This document shows, piece after piece, positions 3,128 through 47,105 of a stretch of 64,000 nt of DNA; within the stretch, counting starts at the first letter, position 1, and every line of letters begins with the position of its first letter. Location of the stretch: NCBI RefSeq assembly GCF_054482525.1, contig NZ_CM137006.1; one strand, given 5' to 3'. Under the pieces are notes generated by a model, which saw nothing but the letters and a program-made list of their open reading frames with translations, did no database searches and was not told the origin of the DNA. A program made the position numbers and the translations under genes.

Positions 3128-3790
3128 ATGGATTATACGCTCACCCGCATAGATCCCAACGGTGAGAACGACCGTTACCCCCTGCAAAAGCAGGAGATCG
3201 TAACCGACCCTCTGGAGCAAGAAGTTAACAAAAACGTGTTTATGGGCAAGCTCAATGACATGGTTAACTGGGGTCGTAAAAACTCAATTTGGCCGTATAA
3301 CTTCGGTCTTTCCTGCTGTTACGTTGAGATGGTGACTTCGTTTACCGCGGTGCATGACGTGGCGCGTTTTGGCGCAGAAGTATTGCGTGCTTCGCCGCGT
3401 CAGGCTGACCTGATGGTGGTGGCAGGAACCTGCTTTACCAAAATGGCACCGGTTATTCAGCGTCTGTATGACCAGATGCTGGAACCAAAATGGGTTATCT
3501 CAATGGGTGCCTGTGCCAACTCTGGCGGTATGTACGATATTTATTCCGTTGTGCAGGGCGTCGATAAATTCATCCCGGTTGATGTGTATATCCCGGGCTG
3601 CCCGCCGCGTCCTGAAGCGTACATGCAGGCACTGATGCTGTTGCAGGAATCTATCGGCAAAGAACGTCGTCCGCTCTCCTGGGTGGTTGGCGATCAGGGC
3701 GTTTATCGCGCCAATATGCAATCAGAGCGCGAACGCAAGCGCGGTGAACGCATTGCCGTAACCAACCTGCGTACACCTGACGAGATTTAA
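3128..3790 (+). CDS. nuoB: NADH:quinone oxidoreductase subunit B
   Basis: 220 aa, cysteine-containing Fe-S subunit sequence (CCYVEM ... GCPP). Confidence 0.95.
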
Positions 3791-3883
3791 TTTGCGCCTG
3801 TCGGCAAAGGGATTTTTCTTCGCTTATTCCTAAATCTATTTCGCGAAGCTTACTGCGCCGACAGTCACCACGGACCATTTGCA

Positions 3884-5686
3884 ATGGTGAACAATATGAC
3901 CGACTTAACCGCGCAAGAACCCGCCTGGCAGACCCGCGATCATCTTGATGATCCGGTGATTGGCGAACTGCGCAACCGTTTTGGGCCGGATGCCTTTACT
4001 GTTCAGGCGACTCGCACCGGGGTTCCCGTTGTGTGGATCAAGCGTGAACAATTACTGGAAGTGGCCGATTTCTTAAAGAAACTGCCGAAACCTTACGTCA
4101 TGCTGTTTGACTTACACGGCATGGACGAACGTCTGCGCACACACCGCGAAGGGTTACCTGCCGCGGATTTTTCCGTTTTCTACCATCTGATTTCTATCGA
4201 TCGTAACCGCGACATCATGCTGAAGGTGGCGCTGGCAGAAAACGATCTGCACGTACCGACCTTCACCAAACTGTTCCCGAACGCTAACTGGTATGAGCGT
4301 GAAACCTGGGATCTGTTTGGCATTACTTTCGACGGTCACCCGAACCTGCGCCGCATCATGATGCCGCAAACCTGGAAAGGTCACCCGCTGCGTAAAGATT
4401 ACCCGGCGCGCGCTACCGAATTCTCGCCGTTTGAGCTGACCAAAGCCAAACAGGATCTGGAAATGGAAGCCCTGACCTTCAAACCGGAAGAGTGGGGGAT
4501 GAAGCGCGGCACCGAAAACGAGGACTTCATGTTCCTCAACCTCGGTCCGAACCACCCGTCGGCGCACGGGGCTTTCCGTATCGTTTTACAACTCGATGGC
4601 GAAGAGATTGTCGACTGCGTACCAGACATCGGTTACCACCACCGTGGTGCAGAGAAAATGGGCGAACGCCAGTCCTGGCACAGCTACATTCCTTATACCG
4701 ACCGTATCGAATACCTCGGCGGCTGCGTTAACGAAATGCCTTACGTGCTGGCGGTAGAGAAACTGGCCGGGATCACCGTGCCGGATCGCGTTAACGTCAT
4801 TCGCGTAATGCTCTCCGAACTGTTCCGCATCAACAGCCACCTGCTGTATATCTCGACCTTTATTCAGGACGTCGGCGCGATGACGCCAGTGTTCTTCGCC
4901 TTTACCGATCGTCAGAAAATTTACGATCTGGTGGAAGCAATCACTGGTTTTCGTATGCACCCGGCGTGGTTCCGTATTGGCGGCGTAGCGCACGACCTGC
5001 CGCGTGGCTGGGATCGCCTGCTGCGTGAGTTTCTCGACTGGATGCCGAAACGTCTGGCGTCTTACGAGAAAGCGGCGCTGCAAAACACCATTCTGAAAGG
5101 TCGTTCCCAGGGCGTTGCCGCCTATGGCGCGAAAGAGGCGCTGGAGTGGGGCACCACCGGCGCGGGCCTGCGTGCTACCGGGATCGACTTCGACGTGCGT
5201 AAGGCGCGTCCTTATTCTGGCTATGAAAACTTCGACTTTGAAATCCCGGTTGGTGGTGGTGTTTCTGACTGCTACACCCGCGTAATGCTGAAAGTGGAAG
5301 AGCTGCGCCAGAGTCTGCGCATTCTTGAGCAGTGCCTCAACAACATGCCGGAAGGCCCGTTCAAAGCGGATCACCCGCTGACCACGCCGCCGCCGAAAGA
5401 GCGCACGCTGCAACATATCGAAACCCTGATCACCCACTTCCTGCAAGTGTCGTGGGGTCCGGTGATGCCTGCCAATGAATCCTTCCAGATGATTGAGGCG
5501 ACCAAAGGGATCAACAGTTACTACCTGACCAGCGACGGTAGCACCATGAGTTATCGCACTCGTATCCGCACGCCGAGTTATGCGCATTTGCAGCAAATTC
5601 CGGCGGCGATCCGCGGCAGCTTGGTGTCTGACCTGATTGTTTATCTGGGCAGTATCGATTTTGTTATGTCAGATGTGGACCGCTAA
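3884..5686 (+). CDS. nuoC: NADH:quinone oxidoreductase fused subunit C/D
   Basis: 600-aa ORF; an alternative ATG at 3896 gives MTDLTAQEP (596 aa); fused C/D subunit typical of E. coli. Confidence 0.93.
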
Positions 5687-5688
5687 TT

Positions 5689-6189
5689 ATGCACGAGAAT
5701 CAACAACCACAAACCGAGGCTTTTGAGCTGAGTGCGGCAGAGCGTGAAGCGATTGAGCACGAAATGCACCACTACGAAGACCCGCGTGCGGCGTCCATTG
5801 AAGCGCTGAAAATCGTTCAGAAGCAGCGTGGCTGGGTGCCGGATGGCGCGATCCACGCGATCGCCGATGTGCTGGGTATTCCGGCGAGCGACGTCGAAGG
5901 TGTGGCAACGTTTTATAGCCAGATCTTCCGCCAGCCGGTTGGCCGCCATGTGATCCGTTATTGCGACAGCGTGGTCTGTCATATCAACGGTTACCAGGGT
6001 ATTCAGGCGGCGCTCGAGAAAAAGCTGAACATCAAACCAGGGCAAACGACATTTGACGGTCGCTTTACGCTGCTGCCAACTTGCTGCCTGGGGAACTGTG
6101 ATAAAGGGCCAAACATGATGATCGATGAGGACACTCACGCGCATCTGACCCCGGAAGCGATCCCTGAACTGCTGGAGCGGTATAAATGA
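5689..6189 (+). CDS. nuoE: NADH:quinone oxidoreductase subunit E
   Basis: 166 aa, 2Fe-2S thioredoxin-like subunit; position in operon. Confidence 0.95.
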
Positions 6190-7523
6190 AAAACATTATC
6201 CGTACTCCCGAAACGCATCCGCTGACCTGGCGTCTGCGCGATGACAAACAGCCAGTGTGGCTGGACGAATACCGCAGCAAAAACGGTTACGAAGGGGCGC
6301 GTAAGGCGCTGACCGGGCTGTCTCCGGACGAAATTGTTAATCAGGTAAAAGACGCTGGTCTGAAAGGGCGCGGCGGCGCGGGCTTTTCGACTGGCCTGAA
6401 ATGGAGCCTGATGCCGAAAGACGAATCCATGAACATCCGTTACCTGCTATGTAACGCCGATGAAATGGAGCCGGGCACCTATAAAGACCGCCTGCTGATG
6501 GAGCAACTGCCGCACCTGCTGGTGGAAGGTATGCTCATCTCCGCGTTTGCCCTGAAAGCGTACCGTGGCTACATCTTCCTGCGTGGCGAGTATATCGAAG
6601 CGGCAGTGAATCTGCGCCGTGCCATTGCCGAAGCCACCGAAGCGGGTCTGCTTGGCAAAAACATTATGGGAACAGGTTTCGACTTCGAATTGTTCGTCCA
6701 TACCGGGGCAGGGCGCTACATCTGCGGTGAAGAAACAGCGTTAATCAACTCCCTGGAAGGGCGTCGCGCTAACCCACGCTCGAAGCCTCCATTCCCGGCA
6801 ACCTCCGGTGCATGGGGCAAACCGACCTGTGTCAATAACGTCGAAACCCTGTGTAACGTTCCGGCGATCCTTGCTAACGGCGTGGAGTGGTATCAGAACA
6901 TCTCGAAAAGTAAAGATGCTGGCACCAAGCTGATGGGCTTCTCCGGTCGGGTGAAAAATCCGGGCCTGTGGGAACTGCCGTTCGGCACCACCGCACGCGA
7001 GATCCTCGAAGATTACGCCGGTGGTATGCGTGACGGTCTGAAATTCAAAGCCTGGCAGCCAGGCGGTGCTGGTACTGACTTCCTGACTGAAGCGCACCTT
7101 GACCTGCCGATGGAATTCGAAAGTATCGGTAAAGCGGGAAGCCGTCTGGGTACGGCGCTGGCGATGGCGGTTGACCATGAGATCAACATGGTGTCGCTGG
7201 TGCGTAACCTGGAAGAGTTTTTCGCCCGTGAGTCCTGCGGCTGGTGTACGCCGTGCCGCGACGGTCTGCCGTGGAGCGTGAAAATTCTGCGTGCGCTGGA
7301 GCGTGGCGAAGGTCAGCCGGGCGATATCGAAACACTTGAGCAACTGTGTCGATTCTTAGGCCCGGGTAAAACTTTCTGTGCCCACGCACCTGGTGCAGTG
7401 GAGCCGTTACAGAGCGCCATCAAATATTTCCGCGAAGAATTTGAGGCGGGAATCAAACAGCCGTTCAGCAATACCCATTTGATTAATGGGATTCAGCCGA
7501 ACCTGCTGAAAGAGCGCTGGTAA
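6186..7523 (+). CDS. nuoF: NADH:quinone oxidoreductase subunit F (NADH-binding, FMN)
   Basis: 445 aa; GxGxxG-type nucleotide-binding motif (GRGGAGF); 4-nt overlap with nuoE. Confidence 0.95.
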
Positions 7524-7575
7524 CCGAATTTCGATTAACGCTCAGTCTCTGACTGAGAAAACTGGAAGCATGCTA

Positions 7576-31885: not shown

Positions 31886-33537
31886 TTGGGACGATACTGA
31901 ATCAGCACCAGACGCTCCTGACGATCGATGGTATCTGCGGGCGGAATGGCGAGACTGTTGATATCTTCATCGCGGTCAACCGAAAGCACGAGTGTAATAA
32001 TCCCCTCCTGACGATGTTGATTAAGCCAGTTTGCGAACTCATCACCGCTGACAAATCTCCCTTTCGCATCCGGATAATTAAGGCCGTATTTCAACTCACC
32101 TGTCTGGCGATACATGATGATGTCATCGCGTTGCAGGCTCCATGCCAGACCTGCGGCAACACCGACGCTATCAGTAAGAATATAGCGGCTTGGCTGCAGT
32201 GATTCTTGTGTCATCTCGACAAAAAATTGCGGATGTTTTCCTTCCATGACTCTGTCAGGAATTGAAAATCCTACCAGCAACGCCAGCCCCAGCGGGCAAA
32301 GCGCGGCAAAAGACCAGGTCTTTTCGACGTTTGTTAAGGTGTACCAGCCGAAAAATGCCCATAGCGAAAAAATCGACCAGGCACAGAAGACTTTATAGCT
32401 CTCGAAGGTTTGCCACACCGGCGTGTTCATTGGTCCCCAGGGGGAGACCACAAACGTAGCAATAATGCCAGTGACGCCAAAAGCGATGTTAATCCAGCCA
32501 TTAATCCGCAACGCCAGAGGATTATTTTTTGCTGCCAGCAAAGCGTAATGCGCCATCAGCATTGCCAGAGGTGCAAAGCAGGAAAGAATATAGGTGGGCA
32601 ATTTGCCTTTGGCGACGGAGAAAAACAGCAGCGGCATTACCGCCCAGCTCAACAAATAGACGGTTGCGGAATGCTTGCGGTTTTTCCAGCCTGCGTACAG
32701 TGCTCCGGGGAGTAATCCCAGCCACGGCAGGCTACCGGCAATGATGACCGGCAAGTAGTACCAGAACGAAGCTCTATGCTGAGCATCATCCATTGCAAAG
32801 CGTTGAATATGCTCAACCCAGAAAAAATAGTGCCAGAAGTCAGGCTCCCGCTGCGCTATCGCCAGTCCCCAGGGGAGAACCGTCAGTACGCAACTGATAA
32901 CCGCCAGCCAGCCGTAAATAAAGAGATCTTTCCAGCGTTTTTGCGTTGCAACCCATGGAAGCACGCTTAATACCGGCACGGCAAGGGCGAGAAAACCTTT
33001 GGTCATCACCCCCATGCCGCAAGTGATTCCCAGCAGTAAAAATCCCGCGCTTTTGCCTTTCCACGTCTGTGCCTGCATTGCCAGCCAGAAGCTGCACATT
33101 CCCGCCACCAGCCAGAAGGCAATAAACGGATCGAGCACGGCATAAGTGCCGATGGCATAGACAATGAACAATGAGAGGTAAATCACTGCGGCGAGTAATG
33201 CCAGACGTTTATCGCGCCATAAGCGCAGAGTAAACCAGGTCACCAGCGCGGCAGTTAACAGGGTCGCAAAGATAACGCCTGCCCGCACACCAAAGTTATT
33301 CGCGCCAAATAACCATTGCCCAATGCTGTTAATCCAGTATCCGGCAATGGGTTTTTCAAAATAACGTAGCCCTAACAGATGGGGCACAATCCAGTCGCCG
33401 GATGCCAGCATTTCCCGACTGATTTCCGCATAACGCGTTTCATCGGGTTGCCAGAGCAGACGCGTGCTGATCGGTAACAGGTAATAGCAGGCAATAAACG
33501 CGAAGAGGCCGATAAGGTAACGTACCGATTTCATCAA
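31882..33537 (-). CDS. arnT: Lipid A 4-amino-4-deoxy-L-arabinose transferase ArnT
   Basis: 551 aa (550 from the second Met), polytopic glycosyltransferase; operon order. Confidence 0.93.
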
Positions 33538-34424
33538 CGACTACCCACAATTTGTTGGCAACCCAGCCAGCCTTCACGTCCGGCAATATTTCCGCGAACA
33601 ACTTGCCCGAGCGGCAACGTCCCTGATAACAGTTCGCTTAAAGGGCAAAATGTCACGCCTTCCTGGGCTGCCCGTTTCAGGAGATCCACAAAATTATGCT
33701 GATAAGCGCAGCCTTCAACTTCTGCATGAATGGTATAAACCGGCGTGCCTTTATCTCGCAGGATGCGGTTGAGTAACCAACCGTTAAAATCTTCTGCTTT
33801 CACATCCCGACCAATCACTTCATCCCAGGTGGGTAAGGTCACCGGAATTTGCGCAGTACCGGGTTTTCCTGATTCGAGCAATGGACGAAACGGCATCGCT
33901 CCACGACAATCGCTGTTGTAGCGCAAATGGAACGCTTCTTTTGCTTCGATCACCTGCTGGTCGGCACGCCAGCCAGCGGCTGCGGAGCAAGTTACCGGTT
34001 GGCCGATAATTTCTTCCAGGGTGCGAAGGCCGCGTGCGATATCGTCGACCATTGTTTGCCGATCCCAGTTACCGCTATGGGCTTGCCAGGCATGGTGATC
34101 CCAGGCGTGCAGGCCGACTTCGTGGTGTTTAGCCGCTTCACGAATGATATCGGCATTGGCATGACCAATCTCTTTACCTGGCCAGGCCGTACCTGCCAGT
34201 AAAATATCCCAGCCATAAAGCGATGCCGCGTTTGAGCGCAGCATCTTCCACAAAAACTGTGGCTTCACCAGTCGCCAGAGATGGCGGCCCATATTGTCCG
34301 GGCCGACGCTGAAAAAAATGCTGGCCTGAATATTATGCTTACTCAAGATTTCCAGCAGACGCGGCACGCCTTCACGGGTGCCACGAAAGGTATCGACATC
34401 AATGCGTAAGCCTACTTTGGTCAT
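33534..34424 (-). CDS. arnD: 4-deoxy-4-formamido-L-arabinose-phosphoundecaprenol deformylase ArnD
   Basis: 296 aa, polysaccharide-deacetylase-like. Confidence 0.93.
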
Positions 34425-36402
34425 GATGGTTTATCCGTAAGATCAACGGTGCGCAGGAAGAAATCCAGCGTTTCGTCGATGGTTTCCTGCATATCAATTT
34501 TTGGTTCCCAGTCCAGGCAGCGGCGGGCATTGCGGATGCTCGGTTTACGATGCTCTACATCCTGATATCCTTTGCCGTAGTAGCTGCTACTTTCGACAAC
34601 ACGAAAGCCCGCAAACGGTGGGAAGTGATGGCGCAGCGGATGTTTTTCGAAGCTCGCCAGCAGCATCTCGCCCAGTTCCTCAATGCTCGCTTCGTTATCA
34701 GGATTGCCAATGTTGATAATTTCGCCGTCGCAGCGATTTCCCGCATTTTCGATAATGCGGTATAACGCCTCGATACCATCGCGAATATCAGTAAAGCAGC
34801 GTTTTTGTTTTCCGCCATCAATTAGCTTAATTGGTGAACCTTCTACCAGATTGAGAATGAGTTGCGTAATAGCGCGGGAGCTGCCGATTCGTGCTGCATT
34901 AAGGTTATCCAGTCGTGGTCCCATCCAGTTAAACGGCCGGAAGAGGGTGAACTGTAAACCCTCTTTTTCGCCATAGGCCCAGATCACCCGATCAAGTAAT
35001 TGTTTTGACACCGAATAAATCCAGCGTGGTTTATTCACCGGGCCGACGATTAAATTAGAATGGTCCTCATCGAAGTATTTATCGCTACACATCCCATAAA
35101 CTTCTGAAGTTGACGGGAAGATGATTCGCTTACGGTACTTCACGCAGTAGCGGATAATGCGCAGATTCTCTTCAAAATCGAGTTCAAATACGCGCAACGG
35201 GTTGCGGGTATATTCAATCGGCGTGGCTATCGCCACCAGCGGCAAGACGACATCACATTTTTTGACGTGATACTCAATCCATTCGGAATGAATACTGATA
35301 TCGCCTTCGACAAAGTGAAAATGCGGATGATTCAGAAAACGGCTTATCGCATCGCTGCCAATATCCAGACCGTAAACTTCATAATGATCTTCGCGCAGCA
35401 GGCGTTCTGTCAGATGGTTGCCAATAAAGCCATTCACCCCGAGGATGAGTACCCGGGTACGGCGTCGGGCGGTGCAGGCAGGCTGGCTATTCAAGCGTGA
35501 ACCTTGCACCAGGCCCAGCGTCTGCGCTAACTGCGAGCCCTGCATAGTAATGCCGTCGCCCGCCTGTCCGGTGACGATTTCCAGCGCGCCATCGCCACAG
35601 GCAATCAGCAGTGGTGCAACAGAAATCACGCTCCCCGGCTGTGCTTTGCTGGCATGAGGATGAACACGCGACGACCAGACGGTGAATTTCTGATTGCCAA
35701 CATAGCTGAAGGCACCCGGCCACGGATCGGCAACGGCACGCACCATGTTGTGCAGTACGGATGCCGGCTTATGCCATTCGAGGAAACTGTCTTCCGGTGT
35801 TCTGCGACCAAAACAGGTGGCTTCGTTTTCGCGCTGGGCGATTTCCAGAATATTACCGTGTTTAATGGCGGGTAATGTCTGCTCCAATAGCTGGCGCGCG
35901 GCATGGCACAATTTATGATGCAGCGTAATGGCGATATCGTCTGGCGCAATGGCAACGCGCAGTTGTGCCACAATGGCCCCGGCATCGGCACGTTTCACCA
36001 TTCGGTGCAATGTAACGCCAGTTTCCGTTTCACCGTTCACCAGCACCCAGTTCAGCGGCGCGCGACCACGATATTTTGGTAACAGCGAACCATGCAGATT
36101 AAATGCACCTCTCGGAGCGAGCTGCAAAATCTCATCGCAAATAAGATGGCGATAATAAAAAGAGAAAATCACCTCTGGTGATAGTTGGGCAATGCGTTCC
36201 ACCCACAGCGGATGATTAACGTTATCCGGCGCATAAACTGGAATGCCTCTTTCCGCTGCCAGTCGGGCAACCGAACCATAAAAGGCTTTTTCACCGGGGT
36301 TATCAGTATGGGTAAAAATGGCGCTAATTTCGTAACCGGCAGACAGCAGGGCTTCAATACCGAGGCATCCCATATCGTGGTAGGCAAAAACGACGGTTTT
36401 CA

Positions 36403-36403
<1 letters not shown>
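34421..36403 (-). CDS. arnA: Bifunctional UDP-glucuronate decarboxylase / UDP-Ara4N formyltransferase ArnA
   Basis: 660 aa; N-terminal formyltransferase ([13 protein letters not shown]) and C-terminal short-chain dehydrogenase domain ([14 protein letters not shown]). Confidence 0.95.
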
Positions 36404-37374
<971 letters not shown>

Positions 37375-38514
37375 TTATTGTCCTGCGAGTTGCTGAAGGG
37401 CTGTGATGACGCGGTCGGCATCGGCGGTGGTCATATCCGGGAACAGCGGCAACGAACAGATGCGTTCGCTATTCCATTCGGTATTCGGTAACGACAGCGT
37501 GGGAAAACGCTCGCGATAATATTTTTGTGTGTGAGCGGCGCGGAAATGTAACCCGGTACCAATGCCTCTTTCTTTTAACGCTTCCATCAACGCATCGCGA
37601 CTGATACCACAACGTTGTTCATCGACACGAATAATAAACAGATGCCAGGCGTGAACGTGCGGCCAGGCGGGAAGGCTTAATGGCTGAAAGGGGAGAGCTG
37701 CCAGTGCTTGCTGATATTGCTGGGCAATTTCGCGCCGACGGGTGTTGAGGTGCTCTAATTTGGCTAACTGGGTCAGGGCAATCGCGGCGTTAATATCGGT
37801 CAGATTATACTTATAGCCCGGCGTTAAGACTTCAGCTTGCGGTGCACGGCCCCAGGTTTGTCTGTCATAGGCATCGACACCCAGACCGTGAAATTTTAGC
37901 ATCCGTAGCTGGCGGGCAAGGTTTTCATTATCAGTAACAATCAGGCCACCTTCCGCACAGGTAATATTTTTGATGGCGTGAAACGAAAAAATAGCGGTAC
38001 CTTTTGCGCCAATATGTCGGCCTTTGTAATACGTACCGACGGCATGGGCAGCATCTTCGATAACTGCGATGCCGTAACGTTCGCCAATGGCGCGAATGGC
38101 GTCAATATCTGCTGGCGCACCGGCATAATGCACCGGAATGATGGCTTTAGTGCGTGGCGTAATGGCTGACTCGATCGCTTCAGGCGTGACCATCAGCGTA
38201 TCGCGGTCGACATCCACCATTACCGGCGTTGCACCCAACAAGGAGATCATATTGAGGGTTGAAACCCAGGTCAGGGAAGGCGTAATCACTTCATCGCCCT
38301 TGCCAATTTCCAACGCCATTAGCGTGATATGCATTCCGGCGGTGGCTGAACTGACCGCGATGGCATGCTGATTTCCCGTCAACTGGCAAAAGGCTTGTTC
38401 AAGCGCCTGATTCTTCGGACCGGTTGTGATCCAACCGGATTCGAGAACCTCTTTAACTGCAGCGAGTTCCTCCACGCCCATTGCTGGTCGCGAAAAAGGC
38501 AAAAATTCTGACAT
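37375..38514 (-). CDS. arnB: UDP-4-amino-4-deoxy-L-arabinose aminotransferase ArnB
   Basis: ATG at 38512..38514 gives [13 protein letters not shown] (379 aa); the track ORF extends to 38547. Confidence 0.9.
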
Positions 38515-38612
38515 TGCTTTTCCTTCCGCCATTGAATACCTGTCCACTTATATTTGCTATAAAGAGTGTTGTGTATATTTTGCCATTTGGAGCAAAATTT
38601 TAAGGATAGAAT

Positions 38613-38629
38613 ATTAACTTAACCTTAAG
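38613..38629 (-). promoter_or_regulatory. Putative PmrA (BasR) box upstream of arnB
   Basis: Minus-strand sequence CTTAAG-GTTAA-GTTAAT is a direct repeat of the YTTAAK half-site with 5-nt spacing, about 100 nt upstream of the arnB start; PmrA control of arn is established, the exact site is my reading. Confidence 0.5.
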
Positions 38630-38821
38630 AAACTAATATTAGACGTAAATATTGAAATTTTTATATTTTTTCTTATTTAGGCTTTGCATTTGGCAAAATT
38701 TTGAGGCATTTTGCCGGCATCGCAGGATTTTTAATATTACACCAACTGCTAATTATCGCCAGAAATGTCGCTCAATTTCACGGTAATTGTCTGGTTGCGC
38801 TTGTCTATAGGTGGAGTTTAC

Positions 38822-39424
38822 GTGTTAGCTTTTTGCCGCTCTTCGTTGAAGTCAAAAAAATATTTCATCATTTTACTGGCGCTCGCTGCAATTGCCGGAC
38901 TGGGTACTCATGCCGCCTGGAGTAGTAATGGTTTGCCACGTATCGACAATAAAACACTGGCCAGACTGGCACAGCAGCACACGGTTGTCGTTTTGTTTCG
39001 CCATGCTGAACGTTGCGATCGTTCAACCAATCAATGCTTGTCAGATAAAACAGGTATTACGGTCAAAGGTACCCAGGATGCCCGTGAACTGGGCAACGCT
39101 TTTAGCGCTGATATCCCTGATTTCGATCTTTATTCCAGTAATACCGTCCGGACCATTCAGTCGGCGACCTGGTTTTCAGCGGGTAAAAAGCTGACGGTAG
39201 ATAAACGACTTCTTCAATGCGGTAATGAGATTTATAGTGCAATTAAGGACTTACAAAGCAAAGCACCTGATAAAAATATCGTTATTTTTACCCATAATCA
39301 TTGCCTGACATATATTGCTAAAGATAAGCGTGATGCGACATTTAAACCTGATTATCTGGATGGTTTAGTCATGCATGTGGAAAAAGGCAAAGTTTATCTG
39401 GATGGGGAATTCGTTAACCACTAA
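38822..39424 (+). CDS. ais: LPS core heptose(II)-phosphate phosphatase Ais (PmrG)
   Basis: GTG at 38822 gives (M)[25 protein letters not shown] and 200 aa with signal peptide; divergent from arnB. Confidence 0.88.
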
Positions 39425-39462
39425 ATTTTCAATCTGACAGCCAGTAATGGCTGTCATCATTG

Positions 39463-39888
39463 TTACAGAAGACCTTTCAAACGTAACGTTTTTCGGGTGG
39501 CGACATTCAAATCATAATGCACCAGATCTTCAGGTTTTACCCACGCGTAGTCCTGAAACTCTTCGTTTATTTTCACTTCTCGGTTGGCAGAAACGCAGTC
39601 AAAAATCAGGTAAATCATATAAATCTCTTCCTTGCGACCATCTGCATACGTCTTGGTGCGAATATCATCGCTGAAGGTCCACGGCGTGATTTCTGTCAAA
39701 AGCAGCTGTTCTCCCAGTTCTTCGCGAATTTCGCGGCGTAGTGCCTCTTCAATTCGTTCGCCAGGCTCCACGCCGCCACCCGAAAGCGCCCATTGACCGG
39801 GGAAAACGCCGCGATCGTCGGCCATTTTACACAGCAAATAAGCACCATCATTTTGAATCAAAGGGCATACAATAGTCCGTTGTCGCAC
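39463..39888 (-). CDS. nudI: Nudix hydrolase NudI (nucleoside triphosphatase)
   Basis: GTG at 39886..39888 gives (M)[59 protein letters not shown] (Nudix box), 141 aa. Confidence 0.88.
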
Positions 39889-40166
39889 GGGGATATTCCT
39901 TATAAATAAAAAGAAACCATGAGAATACGGTAACTCAGAAATATGTGAAAGTGACAGTAATCTCTTTTGCGATGATAACTGCACTTATTATTATTTTTGT
40001 GTGTATCGATAAAGTGTGTTTATTTTTTCGGCGTTTAATTATTTAAGAAGTATTTAGTTACAATAAGTGACTAGATCCCTTTTTTCGCTCATTGAATCCT
40101 CTGTGCCAGGCAGTACAATCCCGCAGCTTTGGGAATTTTGATTTATTGCTTGTGGGAGAGGGGAAA

Positions 40167-40709
40167 ATGAAAAAAATTGCGCTAGCAGGTCTGGCCGGAA
40201 TGCTGTTGGTTTCTGCATCGGTCAATGCAATGAGCATCAGCGGCCAGGCGGGTAAAGAATACACCAATATTGGTGTCGGTTTTGGGACTGAATCAACGGG
40301 CCTGGCGTTAAGCGGTAACTGGACACATAACGACGACGACGGTGACGTCGCGGGCGTGGGGCTGGGGTTGAATCTACCTCTCGGGCCGTTAATGGCGACC
40401 GTTGGCGGAAAAGGCGTTTACACCAACCCGAATTACGGCGATGAAGGTTATGCCGCAGCGGTAGGAGGTGGTTTGCAGTGGAAAATTGGCAACAGCTTCC
40501 GTTTGTTTGGCGAGTATTACTACTCTCCGGATTCACTCTCCAGCGGTATTCAAAGTTATGAGGAAGCGAATGCTGGCGCGCGTTACACCATTATGCGTCC
40601 AGTCAGTATTGAGGCGGGTTATCGCTACCTGAATCTGTCGGGTAAAGACGGTAACCGCGACAACGCAGTGGCTGACGGCCCGTATGTTGGGGTTAACGCC
40701 AGTTTCTGA
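40167..40709 (+). CDS. yfaZ: Outer-membrane protein YfaZ
   Basis: ATG at 40167 gives MKKIALAGLAGMLLVSASVNA signal peptide, 180 aa, C-terminal Phe. Confidence 0.88.
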   Translation: MKKIALAGLAGMLLVSASVNAMSISGQAGKEYTNIGVGFGTESTGLALSGNWTHNDDDGDVAGVGLGLNLPLGPLMATVGGKGVYTNPNYGDEGYAAAVGGGLQWKIGNSFRLFGEYYYSPDSLSSGIQSYEEANAGARYTIMRPVSIEAGYRYLNLSGKDGNRDNAVADGPYVGVNASF

Positions 40710-40808
40710 TCCCTTCCGGCGCGGCATTCTGTCGCGCCATTCAGTTTCTTACTACGCCTTATCTCCCTTTGCGTTATAGTGATTCGATAACAAAAGCAGG
40801 AGATAACC

Positions 40809-42017
40809 ATGTTAAAAGTGGAAATGTTATCCACCGGGGATGAAGTGTTACACGGGCAAATCGTTGACACTAACGCTGCCTGGCTGGCCGATTTTTTCTT
40901 TCATCAGGGGTTGCCTTTAACTCGCCGCAATACGGTGGGGGATAACCTTGATGACTTAGTCACCATTCTTCGCGAACGTAGTCAGCACGCCGATGTGCTG
41001 ATCGTTAACGGCGGGCTGGGGCCGACCAGTGATGATTTAAGCGCACTCGCCGCTGCGACAGCAAAAGGTGAAGGCCTGGTGTTGCATGAAGCCTGGCTCA
41101 AAGAGATGGAACGCTATTTCCACGAACGTGGACGAGTAATGGCACCGAGCAACCGTAAACAAGCGGAGCTACCTGCCAGTGCTGAATTTATCAATAACCC
41201 GGTAGGCACCGCCTGTGGTTTTGCCGTGCAGCTTAATCGTTGCCTGATGTTCTTTACCCCCGGCGTACCGTCAGAATTTAAGGTGATGGTCGAGCACGAA
41301 ATCCTGCCGCGTCTGCGCGAGCGTTTTTCTTTACCACAGCCGCCGGTTTGTCTGCGTTTAACTACCTTTGGTCGTTCGGAAAGCGATCTGGCACAAAGCC
41401 TGGACACTCTACAACTGCCGCCGGGCGTAACAATGGGCTATCGCTCCTCAATGCCTATCATCGAACTGAAACTCACCGGACCGGCAAGCGAGCAACAGGC
41501 GATGGAAAAACTGTGGCTGGACGTTAAACGTGTTGCCGGACAGAGCGTGATTTTCGAAGGCACCGAAGGACTGCCCGCGCAGATCAGTCGCGAATTGCAA
41601 AACCGCCAGTTCAGCCTGACGTTGAGCGAGCAATTCACCAGCGGTTTATTGGCTTTGCAACTTTCTCGCGCAGGTGCTCCATTGCTGGCGTGTGAAGTGG
41701 TTCCTTCACAGGAAGAAACCCTGGCGCAAACTGCGCACTGGATTACAGAACGGCGGGCCAACCATTTTGCCGGGCTGGCACTGGCTGTTTCGGGTTTCGA
41801 GAACGAGCATCTCAACTTTGCGCTAGCCACGCCAGATGGCACTTTCGCTCTGCGTGTACGTTTCAGCACTACACGCTACAGCCTGGCTATCCGTCAGGAA
41901 GTGTGCGCAATGATGGCACTGAATATGCTGCGCCGTTGGTTAAACGGCCAGGACATTGCCAGTGAGCATGGCTGGATTGAGGTTGTTGAGTCCATGACCT
42001 TATCCAGTGCGCCGTAA
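40809..42017 (+). CDS. yfaY: CinA-like (molybdopterin-binding / competence-damage-inducible family) protein YfaY
   Basis: 402 aa; N-terminal MoCF-biosynthesis-like domain (MLKVEMLSTGDEVLHGQIVDTNAAWL); the last few codons may derive from the adjacent IS left end. Confidence 0.85.
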   Translation: MLKVEMLSTGDEVLHGQIVDTNAAWLADFFFHQGLPLTRRNTVGDNLDDLVTILRERSQHADVLIVNGGLGPTSDDLSALAAATAKGEGLVLHEAWLKEMERYFHERGRVMAPSNRKQAELPASAEFINNPVGTACGFAVQLNRCLMFFTPGVPSEFKVMVEHEILPRLRERFSLPQPPVCLRLTTFGRSESDLAQSLDTLQLPPGVTMGYRSSMPIIELKLTGPASEQQAMEKLWLDVKRVAGQSVIFEGTEGLPAQISRELQNRQFSLTLSEQFTSGLLALQLSRAGAPLLACEVVPSQEETLAQTAHWITERRANHFAGLALAVSGFENEHLNFALATPDGTFALRVRFSTTRYSLAIRQEVCAMMALNMLRRWLNGQDIASEHGWIEVVESMTLSSAP

Positions 42018-42492
42018 AACCCCGTCCTTCAGGGCGGGGATATAAGGCGCGGTTTTCCACCTGACCAGGTGTTTGCTGTTGTTCAATGTATTGGCGGATG
42101 ACGGATATTGGCGCACCTCCGCAGCTACTGGCAAAATAGCCAGGACTCCACAAAACGCCTTTGTAGTAATACCTGACAGCAATATCTGGTCGATCTCGTC
42201 GCAGAAACCTATTCGATATGCCTTTGAGGCTGTTTACCAGACTGAATATCGCCAGTTTTGGAGGATAGTTAATTAACAAATGGACGTGATCTGGTTCGCC
42301 ATCCATTTCAATCAGTTCAGCTTCAAAATCAGCACATACATTTGAAAAGTAAGTGCGTAGTTTTTCTGTCGCGTCATGGTCAAAAATCTGGCGTCGGTAT
42401 TTGGTGACAAAGACCCGGTGAACATGCATCAGGAAAACACAATGCCTTCCACGCCGGATATCGGTTTCTTTTTTCACAGACCAAAGTATCAT
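41887..42492 (-). CDS. tnpA: IS605-family transposase TnpA (Y1 HUH), apparently C-terminally extended
   Basis: HCVFLMHVHRVFVTKYRRQIF ... PDHVHLLINYPPK (HuH) ... LWSPGYFASSCGG (Tyr region); the core is about 150 aa but the ORF runs to 201 aa through the left-end hairpin and antisense into the yfaY 3' end. Confidence 0.8.
   Translation of the reverse strand: MILWSVKKETDIRRGRHCVFLMHVHRVFVTKYRRQIFDHDATEKLRTYFSNVCADFEAELIEMDGEPDHVHLLINYPPKLAIFSLVNSLKGISNRFLRRDRPDIAVRYYYKGVLWSPGYFASSCGGAPISVIRQYIEQQQTPGQVENRALYPRPEGRGFTAHWIRSWTQQPQSSHAHWQCPGRLTNGAAYSVPSLRTLPDG
42020..42039 (+). repeat. Left-end subterminal hairpin of the IS605-family element
   Basis: CCCCGTCC-TTCA-GGGCGGGG (8-bp stem including one G-T wobble, 4-nt loop); 17 of 20 identical to the right-end hairpin. 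Confidence 0.65.
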
Positions 42493-42499
42493 TTGGCCT

Positions 42500-43708
42500 G
42501 TGAAACGACTACAGGCATTTAAATTCCAGTTAAGACCCGGTGGTCAACAGGAGCGTGAAATGAGGCGCTTCGCAGGCGCATGTCGTTTCGTTTTCAATCG
42601 TGCTCTGGCACGTCAGAATGAGAATCATGAGGCCGGTAATAAATACATCCCTTACGGGAAAATGGCTTCCTGGCTGGTTGAGTGGAAAAACGCCACTGAA
42701 ACGCAATGGCTTAAAGATGCCCCCTCACAGCCATTGCAACAGTCACTGAAAGACCTTGAGCGGGCTTACAAAAACTTCTTCCAGAATCGGGCTGCTTTTC
42801 CCCGATTCAAAAAGCGGGGACAGAATGATGCATTCCGCTACCCGCAGGGCGTTAAGCTCGATCAGGAAAACAGCCGTATTTTTCTGCCGAAACTTGGCTG
42901 GATGCGCTACCGGAACAGCCGTCAGGTCACGGGTGTTGTAAAAAATGTCACTGTCAGCCAGTCCTGCGGTAAGTGGTACATCAGTATTCAGACAGAAAGT
43001 GAAGTATCAACTCCGGATCACCCTTCAGCATCAATGGTCGGGCTGGATGCTGGCGTGGCTAAACTCGCCACGCTGTCAGATGGCACAGTCTTTGAGCCTG
43101 TAAACAGTTTTCAGAAAAACCAGAAGACGCTGGCGAGACTTCAGCGACAGTTAAGCCGCAAGGTCAAATTCAGCAACAACTGGCAGAAGCAGAAACGCAA
43201 AATACAGCGACTGCATTCCTGTATCGCAAATATCCGCAGGGACTACCTTCACAAAGTCACAACGACCGTCAGCAAAAACCACGCAATGATAGTCATTGAG
43301 GATTTGAAGGTCAGCAACATGTCAAAGTCAGCAGCGGGTACGGTCAGCCAGCCGGGGCGCAATGTCCGGGCAAAATCAGGTTTAAACCGTTCGATACTGG
43401 ATCAGGGCTGGTATGAAATGCGCCGCCAGCTTGAGTACAAGCAGCTCTGGCGTGGCGGTCAGGTGCTTGCTGTTCCGCCAGCGTACACAAGCCAGCGTTG
43501 CACGTGCTGTGGTCATACAGCGAAAGAAAATCGCCTGTCACAAAGTCAATTCAGATGCCAGGTATGTGGATATACAGCGAACGCCGATGTAAATGGCGCT
43601 CGTAACATTTTAGCGGCGGGGCACGCCGTTCTTGCCTGTGGAGGGATGGTGCAGTCAGGCCGCTCGTTGAAGCAGGAACCCACCGAAATGATTCAGGCGA
43701 CAGCCTGA
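42500..43708 (+). CDS. tnpB: TnpB (OrfB), RuvC-like RNA-guided nuclease of IS605 family
   Basis: 402 aa, GTG start; RuvC-I ([16 protein letters not shown]), RuvC-II ([10 protein letters not shown]), zinc finger (CTCCGH ... CQVCG), RuvC-III ([10 protein letters not shown]). Confidence 0.9.
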
Positions 43709-43721
43709 ACGTAGCAGGGAT

Positions 43722-43741
43722 CCACGTTCTTCAGGGCGTGG
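43722..43741 (+). repeat. Right-end subterminal hairpin of the IS605-family element
   Basis: CCACGTTC-TTCA-GGGCGTGG, same architecture and loop as the left-end hairpin, 14 nt after the tnpB stop. Confidence 0.65.
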
Positions 43742-44907
43742 AGGATGTCAAGTTGGCGCTGTATGTGCTGGCGTTTCTCGACCGTTCGAATATCGGTTTT
43801 GCCAAACAGACCTACCAGATTGATACCGGGCTGAGTAATGAAGCTTATGCGCTGGGAGCAGGCATTTTCTTTGTGGTATATGCGTTTCTGGGTGTTCCGG
43901 CGAATCTTTTGATGCGCAAACTGGGGGCAAGAACCTGGATTGGTACGACAACACTGCTGTGGGGATTTCTTTCGGCAGCCATGGCATGGGCCGATACTGA
44001 AGCGAAATTTCTGATCGTTCGCACTCTGCTTGGTGCTGCGGAGGCCGGGTTCTTCCCTGGTATGATTTATCTCACCTCGCAATGGTTTCCGCAGCGTAAT
44101 CGCGCCAGCATTATGGGGCTGTTCTATATGGGTGCACCGCTGGCGTTAACACTGGGATCACCGCTTTCCGGCGCGCTGCTGGAGATGCATGGATTTATGG
44201 GGCATCCCGGCTGGTTCTGGATGTTTGTGATTGAAGGATTGCTGGCAGTCGGCGCTGGGGTATTCACATTCTTTTGGCTTGATGACACACCGGAGCAGGC
44301 ACGTTTTCTGAGTAAACAAGAAAAAACGTTGCTTATCAATCAACTGGCAAGTGAAGAACAACAGAAAGTGACTTCTCGATTGAGCGATGCGCTGCGTAAT
44401 GGCCGAGTCTGGCAACTGGCGATTATCTACCTGACCATTCAGGTGGCGGTTTACGGATTAATTTTCTTCCTGCCGACCCAGGTTGCTGCATTGCTGGGGA
44501 CAAAAGTGGGCTTTACGGCGTCGGTGGTCACCGCCATTCCGTGGGTTGCGGTCTTGTTTGGGACCTGGCTTATTCCGCGCTATTCCGATAAAACCGGCGA
44601 ACGGCGTAATGTCGCAGCGCTGTGTGTTGCAGCCATCGGGTTTATTGCCGTGCAGCCGGTGTTCTGGACGATGCCGACACAACTTCTTTCCGGTACGGCG
44701 CTGGCTGCGGGGATTGGTTTTATAAACCTGTTTGGTGCAGTGGGCGGGTTTATTGCCCCGATCCTGCGCGTGAAAGCAGAAACGTTATTTTCCAGCGATG
44801 CGGCGGGATTACTGACGCTGGCAGCGGTGGCGGTCATCGGTTCACTGATTATTTTCACTCTGCGTGTAAATCACACTGTTGCGCAGACCGACGTGGCACA
44901 TCATTAA
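43738..44907 (+). pseudogene. rhmT: MFS transporter RhmT (YfaV), 5'-truncated at the IS right end
   Basis: Homology to the L-rhamnonate transporter begins at LALYVLAFLDRSNIGFAKQ; the native N-terminus (about 20-40 residues) is missing and the ORF opens with a GTG inside the IS right-end hairpin; expression and function uncertain. Confidence 0.6.
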
Positions 44908-44923
44908 TAGGTTAAGGAACACC

Positions 44924-45727
44924 ATGAACGCATTATTAACCAATCCCTTTAAAGAACGTTTACGCAAGGGCGAAGTGCAAATTGGTCTGTGGTTAAGCTC
45001 AACGACTGCCTATATGGCAGAAATTGCCGCTACTTCCGGTTATGATTGGTTGCTGATTGACGGGGAGCATGCGCCAAACACCATTCAGGATCTTTATCAC
45101 CAGCTACAGGCGGTAGCGCCCTATGCCAGCCAACCCGTGATCCGTCCGGTGGAAGGCAGTAAGCCGCTGATTAAACAAGTCCTGGATATTGGCGCACAAA
45201 CTCTACTGATCCCGATGGTCGATACTGCCGATCAGGCACGTCAGGTGGTGTCTGCCACGCGCTATCCTCCCTACGGTGAGCGTGGTGTTGGGGCCAGTGT
45301 GGCACGGGCTGCGCGCTGGGGACGCATTGAGAATTACATGGCGCAAGTCAACGATTCGCTTTGTCTGTTGGTGCAGGTGGAAAGTAAAACGGCACTGGAT
45401 AACCTGGACGAAATCCTCGACGTCGAAGGGATTGATGGCGTGTTTATTGGACCTGCGGATCTTTCTGCGTCGTTGGGCTACCCGGATAACGCCGGGCACC
45501 CGGAAGTGCAGCGAATTATTGAAACCAGTATTCGGCGGATCCGTGCTGCGGGTAAAGCGGCTGGTTTTCTGGCTGTGGCTCCTGATATGGCGCAGCAATG
45601 CCTGGCGTGGGGAGCGAACTTTGTCGCTGTTGGCGTTGACACGATGCTCTACAGCGATGCCCTGGATCAACGACTGGCGATGTTTAAATCAGGCAAAAAT
45701 GGGCCACGCATAAAAGGTAGTTATTGA
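44924..45727 (+). CDS. rhmA: 2-keto-3-deoxy-L-rhamnonate aldolase RhmA (YfaU)
   Basis: ATG at 44924 gives [26 protein letters not shown] (267 aa), HpcH/HpaI aldolase family. Confidence 0.88.
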
Positions 45728-45767
45728 TATCAAAGGCCCATGGGGATCGGCTGTGGGCCTGTGTTAA

Positions 45768-45941
45768 TTAGTGGTTATTCGCTGCCAGATCGGCTTCGCT
45801 TAGCTGGGTGGCCGCGAGCACCAGGTCACGATCAATGCCCTGTTCCAGCATGCGCAAAGCAATTTTAATGGCTTGTTCATGCATGCCTTCCTGCCAGCCA
45901 ATTTGGTGTCCTTCCTGCCGTAGCCGTTCAGCAATAGTCAT
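45768..45941 (-). CDS. ypaA: YpaA, a small protein duplicating the C-terminal module of Rpn (YhgA-like) proteins
   Basis: 57-aa [60 protein letters not shown]; its DNA is a near-copy of the 3' end of the neighbouring rpnB-like gene; below the ORF-track size cut-off. Confidence 0.6.
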   Translation of the reverse strand: MTIAERLRQEGHQIGWQEGMHEQAIKIALRMLEQGIDRDLVLAATQLSEADLAANNH

Positions 45942-45953
45942 TAATCTCTCCTT

Positions 45954-46913
45954 TTAATAACAGTTCGGAATATCAGCATCAGTGAGTTGGGTTGTCGCCA
46001 GCACAATCTCACGTTCAAAGCCCTGTTCCAGCATGCGCAAGGCAATTTTAATGGCTTGTTCATGCATACCTTCTACTTTGCCTTTCTGCAAACCCTCCAA
46101 CTTCCCCTCCTGCCAACCTTCAATCTTACCCTCCTGCCAGCCAATTTGATGTCCTTCCTGCCGCAGCCGTTCAGCAATAGTCATTAATCTCTCCTTTTGT
46201 AGTGGTGAACGTTCGGCAATCTCCTCAATAAAACGGGTGAAACGGGAGGTATCGCCGCATTGCAGCAGATAATTAAACAGCGTTTGTAGCTGGCTGTCAT
46301 TAGTGAAGCCTCTAACCAAAAGCGTGGTGATCCTGTCGACCATACCGATTAAATCGCGGTCGCGAATATGCTTTTGAATCAGTTCCAGCAGAGCTATACG
46401 CCGATGTTGCATGATCTCATCGTCAGGTACGATGGTGATATCCACCAACGGAAAAGCTTCGGTGTACAACTGCCGGGCAAGTTGCGGATCGTCAAACTCA
46501 TCCAGCCAGTTGAGTGAGTACGGGTAAGGCGAGGTTTCGCCATGATAAAACAGCAACGGCACCACCAGCGGGACTCTGTCATAGCCTTTGTCCAGGTGAC
46601 GCTGCATGGCGGCAGTGGCATAGCGCATTAGCCGAAAAGCCATATTCTTTTCTGCAGAGCTTTGATGTTCAATCACGCAGTAGATATAACCGTCACCGTC
46701 GCTGGTTTCCACGGACCACAAAACATCCGAGTAGTAAGCGCGTAAACTTTTTTCAATAAAACTGGTGGGTTCCAGGCGTAAGGTTTGCAGGTTGCAAAGC
46801 TTGCGCAGCGGCTCTGGTAGATGTATTTCCAGAAAATCCCGTGCGGTTTCGGGTGTGAACATAAAGGTTTTAAACACCGCATCATGCGGGGAGGAGGTTG
46901 TTGATTCGGTCAT
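45954..46913 (-). CDS. rpnB: Rpn-family recombination-promoting nuclease (YhgA-like), RpnB/YfaD-like
   Basis: 319 aa; N-terminal PD-(D/E)XK-like region ([26 protein letters not shown]) and C-terminal GWQEGK repeats plus the conserved tail [24 protein letters not shown]; K-12 position of yfaD. Confidence 0.8.
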
Positions 46914-47105
46914 GGTTGTCCGTCACCTGATATTTATGATGACGCGACATTACGGTTATCCCAGGCCTTTGACATCTGCCAGTTTCAGCCTTTGTGAGAC
47001 GTTTTCAGAGGAATTTTCACTGCGTTGCAACGCATACATTGGGCATGGAATCGTGTACGCAAAAATGCCCGGTAACCACATGCTTACCGGGCATCAGAAG
47101 GGAGT

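Follow-up and report, generated by a model that had tools for sequence, protein, structure and literature searches.

An IS609-like element and a target-to-target deletion in the L-rhamnonate gene cluster of Escherichia coli

In Escherichia coli K-12 the yfaXWVU/rhmRDTA cluster lies between yfaY and rpnE/glpC in the order yfaY, rhmR, rhmD, rhmT, rhmA, which an earlier, sequence-only reading of the DNA studied here had given correctly. The stretch that was analysed (64,000 nucleotides of contig NZ_CM137006.1, RefSeq assembly GCF_054482525.1; hereafter the window) keeps what is left of the cluster at the same chromosomal place, but is without its regulator and dehydratase genes and carries an insertion sequence (IS) there instead. 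How did the element come to stand where these genes are missing, and was it the element that removed them?

The element and its two junctions

Pairwise comparison of the window with the yfaY-rhmA locus of K-12 MG1655 follows homology through yfaY up to position 42003 and finds it again at 43752, which corresponds to nt 63 of yfaV/rhmT. The 2348 bp of K-12 that are absent between these points comprise the final 8 nt of yfaY with the stop codon, the whole of yfaX/rhmR, the whole of rhmD and nt 1-62 of rhmT; in their place the window has a 1748-bp IS609-like element. The sequence-only reading had placed the IS directly after yfaY, and the two do adjoin, but the element starts inside the gene, at 42004, and not after its stop, at 42018. 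As a result the last 14 nt of yfaY (40809..42017, + strand, 402 aa, Pfam MoCF_biosynth) are IS-derived (42004-42017), and its product ends in ...LSSAP* as opposed to ...LSV* in K-12.

The element (42004..43751, + strand) is complete, beginning with CCAGTGCGCC and ending with GGATGTCAA. The same 1748 bp are found at six other E. coli loci, with end-to-end matches (query positions 3-1747) at the ydcO, ytfA, yedK, yoaG and gltX/yfeD loci of other genomes, where some copies are named 'IS609 family' by the PGAP annotation; the places that IS609 occupies are few and mostly fixed, the median genome having 2. The right terminus is the same in the six other copies, and K-12 rhmT homology starts at the very next base. 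TTAT precedes the left end at all seven sites, and three empty sites in K-12 are contiguous across the insertion point, with the boundary after TTAT and no target duplication.

Both ends carry subterminal imperfect hairpins, identified by sequence and DNA folding, and there are no terminal inverted repeats. The left-end recognition structure (42016..42039, + strand) consists of AAAA (42016-42019), a probable guide tetranucleotide, and a hairpin, CCCCGTCC-TTCA-GGGCGGGG (42020-42039), with 16 nt between the hairpin foot and the cleavage site. Its right-end counterpart (43718..43751, + strand) is made of GGAT (43718-43721), the hairpin CCACGTTC-TTCA-GGGCGTGG (43722-43741) and 10 nt, AGGATGTCAA, that end in TCAA at the IS terminus.

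Between the ends lie two genes. The Y1/HUH transposase gene tnpA (42061..42492, − strand, 143 codons) matches Pfam Y1_Tnp over the full profile (1-121, E=2.5e-40) and encodes both an HVH motif and the C-terminal YIEQQ tyrosine. Comparison with an intact 143-aa copy in strain JNE21-009 established that its stop has changed from TAG to CAG at 42061-42063, so that the frame continues to 41887 (201 aa) and is called a pseudogene by PGAP. The accompanying 'missing C-terminus' flag might suggest a left-end truncation of the element; this was rejected, the element being full length and the flag reflecting the loss of the stop. In most IS609 copies tnpA is annotated as defective. The tnpB frame (42500..43708, + strand, 402 aa) is open and intact; its product, of the RNA-guided endonuclease family, has the Pfam domains OrfB_IS605, Cas12f1-like_TNB and HTH_OrfB_IS605, and its residues 3-377 match the ISDra2 TnpB structures 8EXA and 8H1J (E=4e-55). 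In IS608, tnpA and tnpB are co-directional; here, unlike in that element, tnpA is divergent from tnpB.

Together these features assign the element, by sequence, to the IS608/IS609 type of the IS200/IS605 family, with which it shares a Y1/HUH TnpA together with a TnpB, subterminal hairpins, lack of a target duplication and insertion 3′ of a fixed tetranucleotide. The rules worked out for IS608 ends (PMC3201880), namely hairpins, a guide tetranucleotide and TCAA 10 nt past the right hairpin, apply to it down to the position of TCAA, with the differences that the IS608 target is TTAC and not TTAT and that its left cleavage falls 19 nt, rather than 16 nt, from the hairpin foot. From a typical IS609/IS608 copy the present one differs by its read-through tnpA and by being flanked by two different genomic positions, so that it is not a simple insertion.

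The two positions have a motif in common. At the left junction, TTAT (42000..42003, + strand, codons 398-399 of yfaY) stands directly 5′ of the IS and is followed by CCAGTGCG, the K-12 sequence at that spot being TTAT followed by CTGTCTGA; this TTAT is kept in nine intact alleles. At the right junction ...GTCAA is followed by GTTGGCGCTG, the counterpart of which is preceded by GTTTAT in K-12 and eight other intact alleles; the 20 nt of the right flank (43752..43771, + strand), GTTGGCGCTGTATGTGCTGG, are identical and preceded by TTTAT in 9/9 intact rhmT alleles examined. The missing 2348 bp hence start just past one TTAT and finish with another (rhmT codons 20-21). With 32 occurrences of TTAT in 4401 nt of top strand, the probability that a random endpoint follows one is ~0.007, and a deletion bounded in this way by two target sites points to the transposase, or to recombination of one copy with another, and not to random deletion. 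By contrast, strain 2011C-3911 has lost 3864 bp at rhm with no IS present; there the ends show microhomology of 1-2 bp and lack TTAT.

The sequence-only reading had proposed an IS-mediated adjacent deletion, and the exact IS ends, the TTAT at the left and the TTAT before the rhmT flank in all nine intact alleles support this. Such a deletion is recognized by an exact IS terminus at the junction and a distal endpoint that fits the target of the element, both of which are seen here. Classical adjacent deletions by DDE elements (IS1, IS10, IS26) likewise leave one element with an exact end and a deletion that runs from that end to a target-fitting site. However, the present element belongs to the Y1 single-strand transposons, and its chemistry differs from that of the DDE elements: a tyrosine transposase acts on single-stranded DNA, no target duplication arises, and the distal endpoint is a base-paired tetranucleotide rather than the product of a loose target preference.

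What remains of the L-rhamnonate genes

The loss of rhmR and rhmD, inferred earlier from the window, extends to the whole genome of the strains that match it here. K-12 RhmD and RhmR have no tblastn match in the 64-kb window, and no rhmR or rhmD DNA is present anywhere in the complete genomes of PCN033, SCU-102 and 19KM1776, the three that are 99.9-100% identical to the window at this locus; a relocated copy, which would have overturned the earlier reading, is thus not found in them. Genomes with an intact cluster do yield a second match. Judged from gene content, with the regulator and the dehydratase missing and the transporter gene damaged, the L-rhamnonate pathway cannot run in the window strain.

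The rhmT (yfaV) remnant (43752..44907, + strand, Pfam MFS_1) covers K-12 codons 22-429, or 408 of the 429, in agreement with the N-terminal loss noted previously. Only 21 codons are gone from the 5′ side, together with the native promoter and ribosome-binding site; by hydropathy these codons include the start of predicted TM1. PGAP begins a 400-aa 'MFS transporter' at position 43705, with CTG as the start codon; as nothing but this CTG, which overlaps the stop of tnpB, underlies the start, it does not provide the valid alternative N-terminus that would contradict a truncation.

Overlooked in the sequence-only reading was a 72-bp in-frame deletion inside the remnant (junction at 44612..44622, + strand). 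Flanked by short direct repeats (..AGCGCTG..) and present only in the window and three genomes, it removes K-12 residues 310-333 (ALTLLAAGIGIGLSGLLSPVMAIV), a run of 24 hydrophobic residues. The earlier suggestion that the transporter is probably inactive can accordingly be graded: inactivity is plausible for the common truncated allele, and in the window strain, where residues 310-333 are also deleted, the transporter is almost certainly dead.

The aldolase gene is intact, as had been stated: rhmA (yfaU; 44924..45727, + strand) encodes a 2-keto-3-deoxy-L-rhamnonate aldolase of 267 aa that is 99.25% identical to K-12 RhmA and matches Pfam HpcH_HpaI (E=2.8e-67). In a crude promoter scan of the + strand, nothing resembling a sigma-70 site was detected upstream of the rhmT remnant, which is probably promoterless, with rhmA transcribable only by read-through from tnpB. 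Substitutions private to the lineage are too few for dN/dS to bear on the truncated transporter or the orphan aldolase, and the pairwise dN/dS values mostly represent divergence older than, or unrelated to, the deletion event.

Distribution and possible origins of the deletion

A search for the same junction in other genomes, proposed with the initial observation, showed that 187 (~3%) of the complete E. coli genomes, 5426 in all, have the left junction, strain 042 (phylogroup D) among them. The best match in the search for an intermediate, strain H101, was rejected: its IS609 copy is internally deleted, lies between lsrG and tam and is unrelated to the one studied here. Loss of the cluster is not confined to this allele: at least 80% of the rhmR-rhmD segment survives in only ~70% of complete genomes, and at least three other independent rhm-loss alleles bring the number in the species to at least four; a separate ~1.7 kb deletion from rhmR into rhmT turned up in the search for an IS-less joint. 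The IS609 rhm allele is an ordinary, already-annotated lineage polymorphism, and its added interest is mechanistic only.

As a mechanism we tentatively favor, at somewhat less than even confidence, a one-step adjacent deletion made by TnpA from a single IS609 copy. An IS609-like single-strand transposon would have inserted 3′ of TTAT in the last yfaY codons, its strand being the template for lagging-strand synthesis. TnpA would then, in a second reaction of the transposase type, have cut the right end, as in excision, while the left-end-guided active site cut not after the TTAT beside the left end but after the one 2348 nt downstream, in rhmT codons 20-21. By strand transfer, nt 63 of rhmT would have become linked to the right end, the 2348 nt in between (yfaY tail, rhmR, rhmD and 5′ end of rhmT) being released as a single-strand circle and lost, and replication would have fixed the deletion. 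The outcome would be loss of the dehydratase and of the IclR-type regulator, a promoterless gene for a transporter without its first 21 residues, and an intact aldolase gene; in the window lineage, the transporter remnant would later have decayed by the 72-bp in-frame deletion. Whereas the structure of the locus, both exact ends, both TTAT sites, the lack of rhmR and rhmD genome-wide and the spread of the allele among genomes are observed, the order of these events, the one-step TnpA chemistry and the state of expression are what we infer.

Target-guided cleavage of this kind is made plausible by the IS608-like architecture of the ends, with their hairpins, 4-nt guide position and TCAA. The GC skew of the window + strand is positive (+0.044), and in K-12 the locus maps to the minus strand at 2.36 Mb; on the K-12 map, we take the top strand of the element to be the lagging-strand template. 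In favor of the one-step deletion, the joint without the IS (TTAT-GTTGGCG) occurs in none of the 5426 genomes. Against it count the absence, from the same 5426 complete genomes, of an intermediate with the IS at the yfaY site and rhm intact, and the need for a distal TTAT 2.3 kb away to outcompete the one in cis. The stop-less tnpA of this copy also counts against it, but the stop loss could postdate the event. No IS609 excision joint was seen in the 5426 genomes. A literature search found no published description of a TnpA-catalysed adjacent deletion in the IS200/IS605 family, and nothing specific on IS609 biology or on rhm polymorphism.

The same sequence would result if two IS609 copies had inserted in the same orientation, at the TTAT of yfaY and at that of rhmT, and RecA-dependent recombination between the 1.75-kb direct repeats had left one copy and removed the second TTAT. 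This is a real possibility, only slightly less probable than the one-step deletion: it predicts the observed exact ends with TTAT kept at the left and absent at the right, calls for no unprecedented transposase reaction, and draws on homologous recombination, which is demonstrably very active at this locus, while the strand bias known for the IS200/IS605 family favors the same orientation of both copies. However, an element that holds few, mostly fixed sites would have had to undergo two rare insertions no more than 2.3 kb apart, and queries with chimeric junctions recovered neither a single insertion nor the two-copy state in any of the 5426 genomes. If instead the 2348 bp had been lost by slippage or microhomology between the TTAT repeats, and IS609 had inserted later at the TTAT of the joint, the 4-bp repeat shared by the endpoints and the existence of other IS-less rhm deletions would be accounted for; yet besides the missing IS-less joint, the IS would have had to choose this TTAT among ~25,000 per strand (extrapolated from 0.005/nt), a coincidence that is unnecessary if the IS caused the deletion, and we regard this order of events as highly improbable. 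An illegitimate deletion unconnected with the IS and next to it only by chance, or an artefact of assembly, has nothing specific to support it beyond the frequency of deletions at this locus, and is effectively refuted by the identical structure of 187 independently assembled complete genomes, in which both IS ends are exact and both endpoints lie at TTAT.

A further question is whether the allele arose once, in phylogroup D. The window/PCN033 and 042/MB22 haplotypes, despite identical junctions, share exclusively 0 of 108 variable flank sites, and on neither flank do they form sister groups. Between their IS copies there are 33 differences in 1748 sites, a divergence equal to that between copies inserted at different loci, and the window rhmT is nearer to its counterpart in strain N3 (99.2%), where the cluster is intact, than to that of MB22. 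These data would fit an allele that arose more than once, or that was moved between backgrounds by TnpB-guided homing-type conversion. On the other hand, PCN033 and 042 both belong to phylogroup D and cluster together (PMC4578781), and recurrence would have had to use the same two of 15 TTAT sites twice. Moreover, 042, MB22 and ECA64 are identical in IS, rhmT and rhmA yet 20-25 SNPs apart in yfaY, the mark of a fine-scale recombination mosaic, at which non-sister flanks are expected even under a single origin. We consider a multiple origin, or such a homing-type transfer, unlikely. Flank phylogeny combined with an IS609 copy tree was uninformative on this point, the IS tree being star-like and the flanks a sub-kb mosaic.

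A putative guide RNA and the meaning of the allele

TnpB and its omega-RNA have been described to target the donor joint left by excision (Meers et al., 10.1101/2023.03.14.532601). As in that system, an intact TnpB lies beside the right end. The flanking nucleotides 43752..43771 are the putative guide portion of the omega-RNA of this copy, whose scaffold presumably ends at the IS right end and which is predicted to end in GTTGGCGCTGTATGTG. Rfam gave nothing above threshold for an omega-RNA family in the right-end region of the element, the matches at 43635-43764 to HgcC (19.1 bits, gathering threshold 50) and RAGATH-18 (26.5 bits, threshold 44.9) both being subthreshold; the fold z-score of the putative omega-RNA region is −2.4.

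All the intact rhmT alleles examined contain the 20-nt flank with TTTAT upstream, which together make up a perfect target. In the Meers et al. system the 'empty site' is a simple excision joint, whereas here it would be the wild-type allele, with 2.3 kb of extra genes. It is conceivable, if quite improbable, that the TnpB/omega-RNA of this copy would take the wild-type rhm allele for an empty donor site, making the deletion a self-propagating, homing-type allele. Provided that the IS609 TnpB is active, intact rhmT would be cleaved by it, whether resident or newly arriving, and repair templated by the copy with the IS would turn the intact cluster into the deletion allele or block its restoration; such homing could also explain identical junctions within unrelated flanking haplotypes.

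In summary, for the biology of E. coli the allele is a small matter, one of several independent losses of a dispensable L-rhamnonate cluster, although it is a marker for part of phylogroup D, with the reference strain 042 among its carriers, and corrects an automatic annotation in which the remnant appears as an ordinary 'MFS transporter' starting at CTG. For the biology of transposons, it is a clean natural case of an IS200/IS605 element with a deletion bounded on both sides by its own tetranucleotide target, and suggests that single-strand transposons may be able to make target-guided adjacent deletions.

Loss of rhmR, rhmD and the start of rhmT

The 7 kb at 40000-47000 of the window are E. 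coli chromosome, with identities of 100% to strains 19KM1776 and PCN033 and of 99.9% to SCU-102, and are annotated by PGAP in the order yfaY, tnpA pseudogene, TnpB gene, 'MFS transporter', yfaU, rpnE-like gene and glpC. The K-12 MG1655 order is yfaY, yfaX (rhmR), rhmD, yfaV (rhmT) and yfaU (rhmA), just as an earlier sequence-only reading of the locus had given it. BLAST alignment with the K-12 yfaY-rhmA locus follows the homology through yfaY to an insert, where it is broken, and again from 43752, which corresponds to nt 63 of yfaV. The K-12 segment absent from the window measures 2348 bp and consists of the last 8 nt of yfaY, yfaX/rhmR and rhmD in their entirety, and 62 nt from the start of rhmT; the C-terminus of YfaY becomes ...LSSAP* in place of the ...LSV* of K-12. 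RhmA is intact, as claimed (267 aa, 99.25% identity to K-12), and tblastn detected neither RhmD nor RhmR within the 64-kb window. At the level of whole genomes, a composite query made of the rhmT remnant plus reverse-complemented rhmR and rhmD pieces matched PCN033, SCU-102 and 19KM1776 only once each, at the remnant, and matched genomes with an intact cluster twice; the possibility that rhmR and rhmD lie elsewhere in the genome, which would have undone the sequence-only reading, is therefore answered negatively in these three near-identical strains.

The rhmT remnant (43752-44907) retains RhmT residues 22-429 in frame, its homology starting at nt 63, in agreement with the N-terminal loss proposed before; the 5' truncation costs the protein its cytoplasmic tail and the beginning of predicted TM1. 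Overlooked in that proposal is a further in-frame deletion of 72 bp relative to K-12, bounded by short direct repeats (about 44612-44622), that removes 24 hydrophobic residues (K-12 310-333, ALTLLAAGIGIGLSGLLSPVMAIV), or roughly one transmembrane helix. Among the IS-bearing genomes examined, it occurs only in the window, PCN033, SCU-102 and 19KM1776, and not in the allele type of strains 042 and MB22. With residues 1-21 and 310-333 gone, the predicted protein of the window strain cannot be a normal 12-helix transporter, which bears out the judgement that it is probably inactive. PGAP starts the remnant at a CTG (43705) overlapping the tnpB stop (CTGA); some translated product is conceivable, because an in-frame TTG (43753) follows 7 nt after a GGAGGA (43740-43745) in the right end of the IS. 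The IS terminus could likewise be a candidate source of a ribosome-binding site for any downstream gene. A promoter scan of the + strand from tnpB to rhmA found no sigma-70-like promoter, which is weak evidence.

Downstream, an intact rpnE-like gene annotated as 'ISNCY family transposase' (45954-46913, 319 aa) adjoins a ypaA-like pseudogene remnant (45888), whose length differs by 24 bp between the window and the 042/MB22 type; in strain N3, whose rhm cluster is intact, the annotated remnant is 186 nt long, as in the window strain. Binned GC skew is -0.02 in 32001-40000 (8 kb), where arnB (minus strand) lies at the right end and more of the arn operon is expected upstream by synteny with 042, and +0.04 to +0.065 in all other bins.

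A complete IS609-like element

Over its full length, the DNA between the K-12-like flanks corresponds to a repeated element that other genomes carry near ydcO, ytfA, yedK, yoaG and gltX/yfeD. Alignment of its ends with seven further copies (five other insertion sites plus the rhm copy of MB22), together with comparison of three of these five sites with the matching K-12 empty sites, delimits a complete IS609-like element of 1748 bp (42004-43751) that has CC(A/G)GTGCGCC at its start and GGATGTCAA at its end, the insertion lying 3' of TTAT without target duplication. Its coding content, according to Pfam, is a Y1 transposase and a TnpB of 402 aa, the latter matching ISDra2 TnpB structures at E=4e-55. 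Like IS608, whose type of end architecture has been described (PMC3201880), the element has a subterminal hairpin at both ends, a tetranucleotide (here AAAA) with a presumed guide role adjoining the foot of the left hairpin on its 5' side, and a right end that closes with TCAA, 10 nt beyond the right hairpin. On these ends, the Y1 transposase and TnpB, we assign it to the IS200/IS605 family as a complete IS609-like member; every family feature that can be looked for in sequence was found.

The stop codon of tnpA (42061-42063, minus strand) reads CAG here, against TAG in JNE21-009, whose 143-aa copy is intact, and the frame without stop leaves the IS into antisense yfaY as a 201-aa ORF ending at 41887. 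The PGAP flag of a 'missing C-terminus' on tnpA, also given to several other E. coli copies, thus reflects a TAG-to-CAG stop-loss and not a truncated IS end; the same read-through is seen in the 19KM1776 copy at the ytfA site. Ten IS609 copies, from the window and other E. coli loci, differ pairwise at 23-39 of 1748 sites and form a star-like tree, and copies at the ytfA site diverge between strains as much as copies at different loci do, a pattern that suggests an old insertion burst, gene conversion between copies, or both. Strain 2017-02-2CC carries, between lsrG and tam (5001-5735 of its locus), an internally deleted IS609 with both ends and tnpA present and nearly all of tnpB gone, i.e. 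a tnpB-less derivative.

Junctions and the route of deletion

The left IS end adjoins a TTAT in yfaY (42000-42003), where K-12 reads TTAT|CTGTCTGA, and the right end is joined to GTTGGCGCTG..., which is directly preceded by GTTTAT in K-12 and eight other intact alleles; one target site therefore lies directly before the missing 2348 bp, and a second forms their end. On this strand, 4401 nt contain TTAT 32 times, so that a random endpoint would fall after one in about 0.7% of cases. In contrast, neither end of an IS-less 3864-bp rhm deletion in strain 2011C-3911 (position 3071), which starts 72 nt beyond the yfaY TTAT and extends into rhmA, lies at a TTAT, and the microhomology there is 1-2 bp. 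The exact IS ends and the TTAT at both edges support the IS-mediated adjacent deletion proposed by the sequence-only reading. The IS200/IS605 family acts on the lagging-strand template. GC skew of the window + strand is positive, the locus is on the minus strand of K-12 at 2.36 Mb, and from the K-12 map we take the active strand of the element and both TTATs to be on the lagging-strand template.

We slightly prefer, tentatively, a one-step route in which TnpA would cleave the right end as in excision, the left-end guide would choose the distal TTAT in rhmT, and the right end would be joined to rhmT while the intervening strand is let go as a circle. Two same-orientation IS609 insertions followed by homologous recombination, which we regard as a real but somewhat less probable possibility, would yield exactly the same product, and the sequence fits both alike; intermediates of this second route are absent from 5426 complete genomes, and none of the TnpA route were found among them either. 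A deletion that came first, with IS609 inserted at the joint later, is unlikely because the same genomes contain no IS-less joint.

Distribution and significance of the allele

Of the 5426 complete genomes, 187 carry the left junction, among them 042 and a strain of serotype O15:H18 that is designated ST69; 114 genomes match the 7-kb region over 80% or more of its length. PCN033 and 042 both belong to phylogroup D (PMC4578781). The IS-bearing allele falls into two haplotype classes: the window type, with 3 genomes, and that of 042 and MB22. The two differ by about 1.9% everywhere, also in the IS (33 of 1748 sites). That these share no exclusive flank variants and are not sister on either flank would fit a recurrent origin; against this, the ais-yfaY flank (39000-42003) is, by bin-wise comparison, a sub-kb recombination mosaic across strains, and yfaY differs by 20-25 SNPs among 042, MB22 and ECA64, whose IS, rhmT and rhmA are identical, so that flank phylogeny cannot tell one old origin from recurrence. 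A single origin within phylogroup D is tentatively favoured over recurrence. In 400-bp bins of this flank, perfect matches to the window come from different strains in different bins.

The rhmR-rhmD segment is retained over at least 80% of its length in only 3825 of 5426 genomes (~70%). Three other inactivations are independent of the window allele: the 2011C-3911 deletion, a ~1.7-kb deletion fusing rhmR into rhmT (2012C-4502, 2978-4539; 80 genomes) and an IS1203 insertion in rhmT of O157 strain Al Ain (6345-7558). The cluster is evidently dispensable, and for K-12, L-rhamnonate is classed by the EcoCyc curators among the dead-end metabolites (PMC3781023).

TnpB and its omega-RNA have been described to target donor joints (10.1101/2023.03.14.532601). 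The candidate guide of this IS609 copy is rhmT sequence, preceded by TTTAT in the wild type, and the region 43635-43764 (tnpB 3' end and IS right end), possibly an omega-RNA scaffold, matches two Rfam families below threshold, RAGATH-18 (26.5 bits, E=0.039) and HgcC (19.1 bits, E=0.16), the consensus 3' end of the latter (GGAGGAGGUCAG) resembling the IS terminus (GGAGGAUGUCAA). It is quite improbable that this TnpB targets intact rhm alleles in the same way; if it did, the deletion would be a homing-type allele. The literature searched holds no description of this rhm allele or of TnpA-mediated adjacent deletions. The earlier observation as a whole is confirmed and its interpretation supported: gene loss associated with an IS is a known kind of event, seen here in publicly annotated genomes, and the allele, neat as its mechanistic signature is, represents a lineage polymorphism of an ordinary sort.
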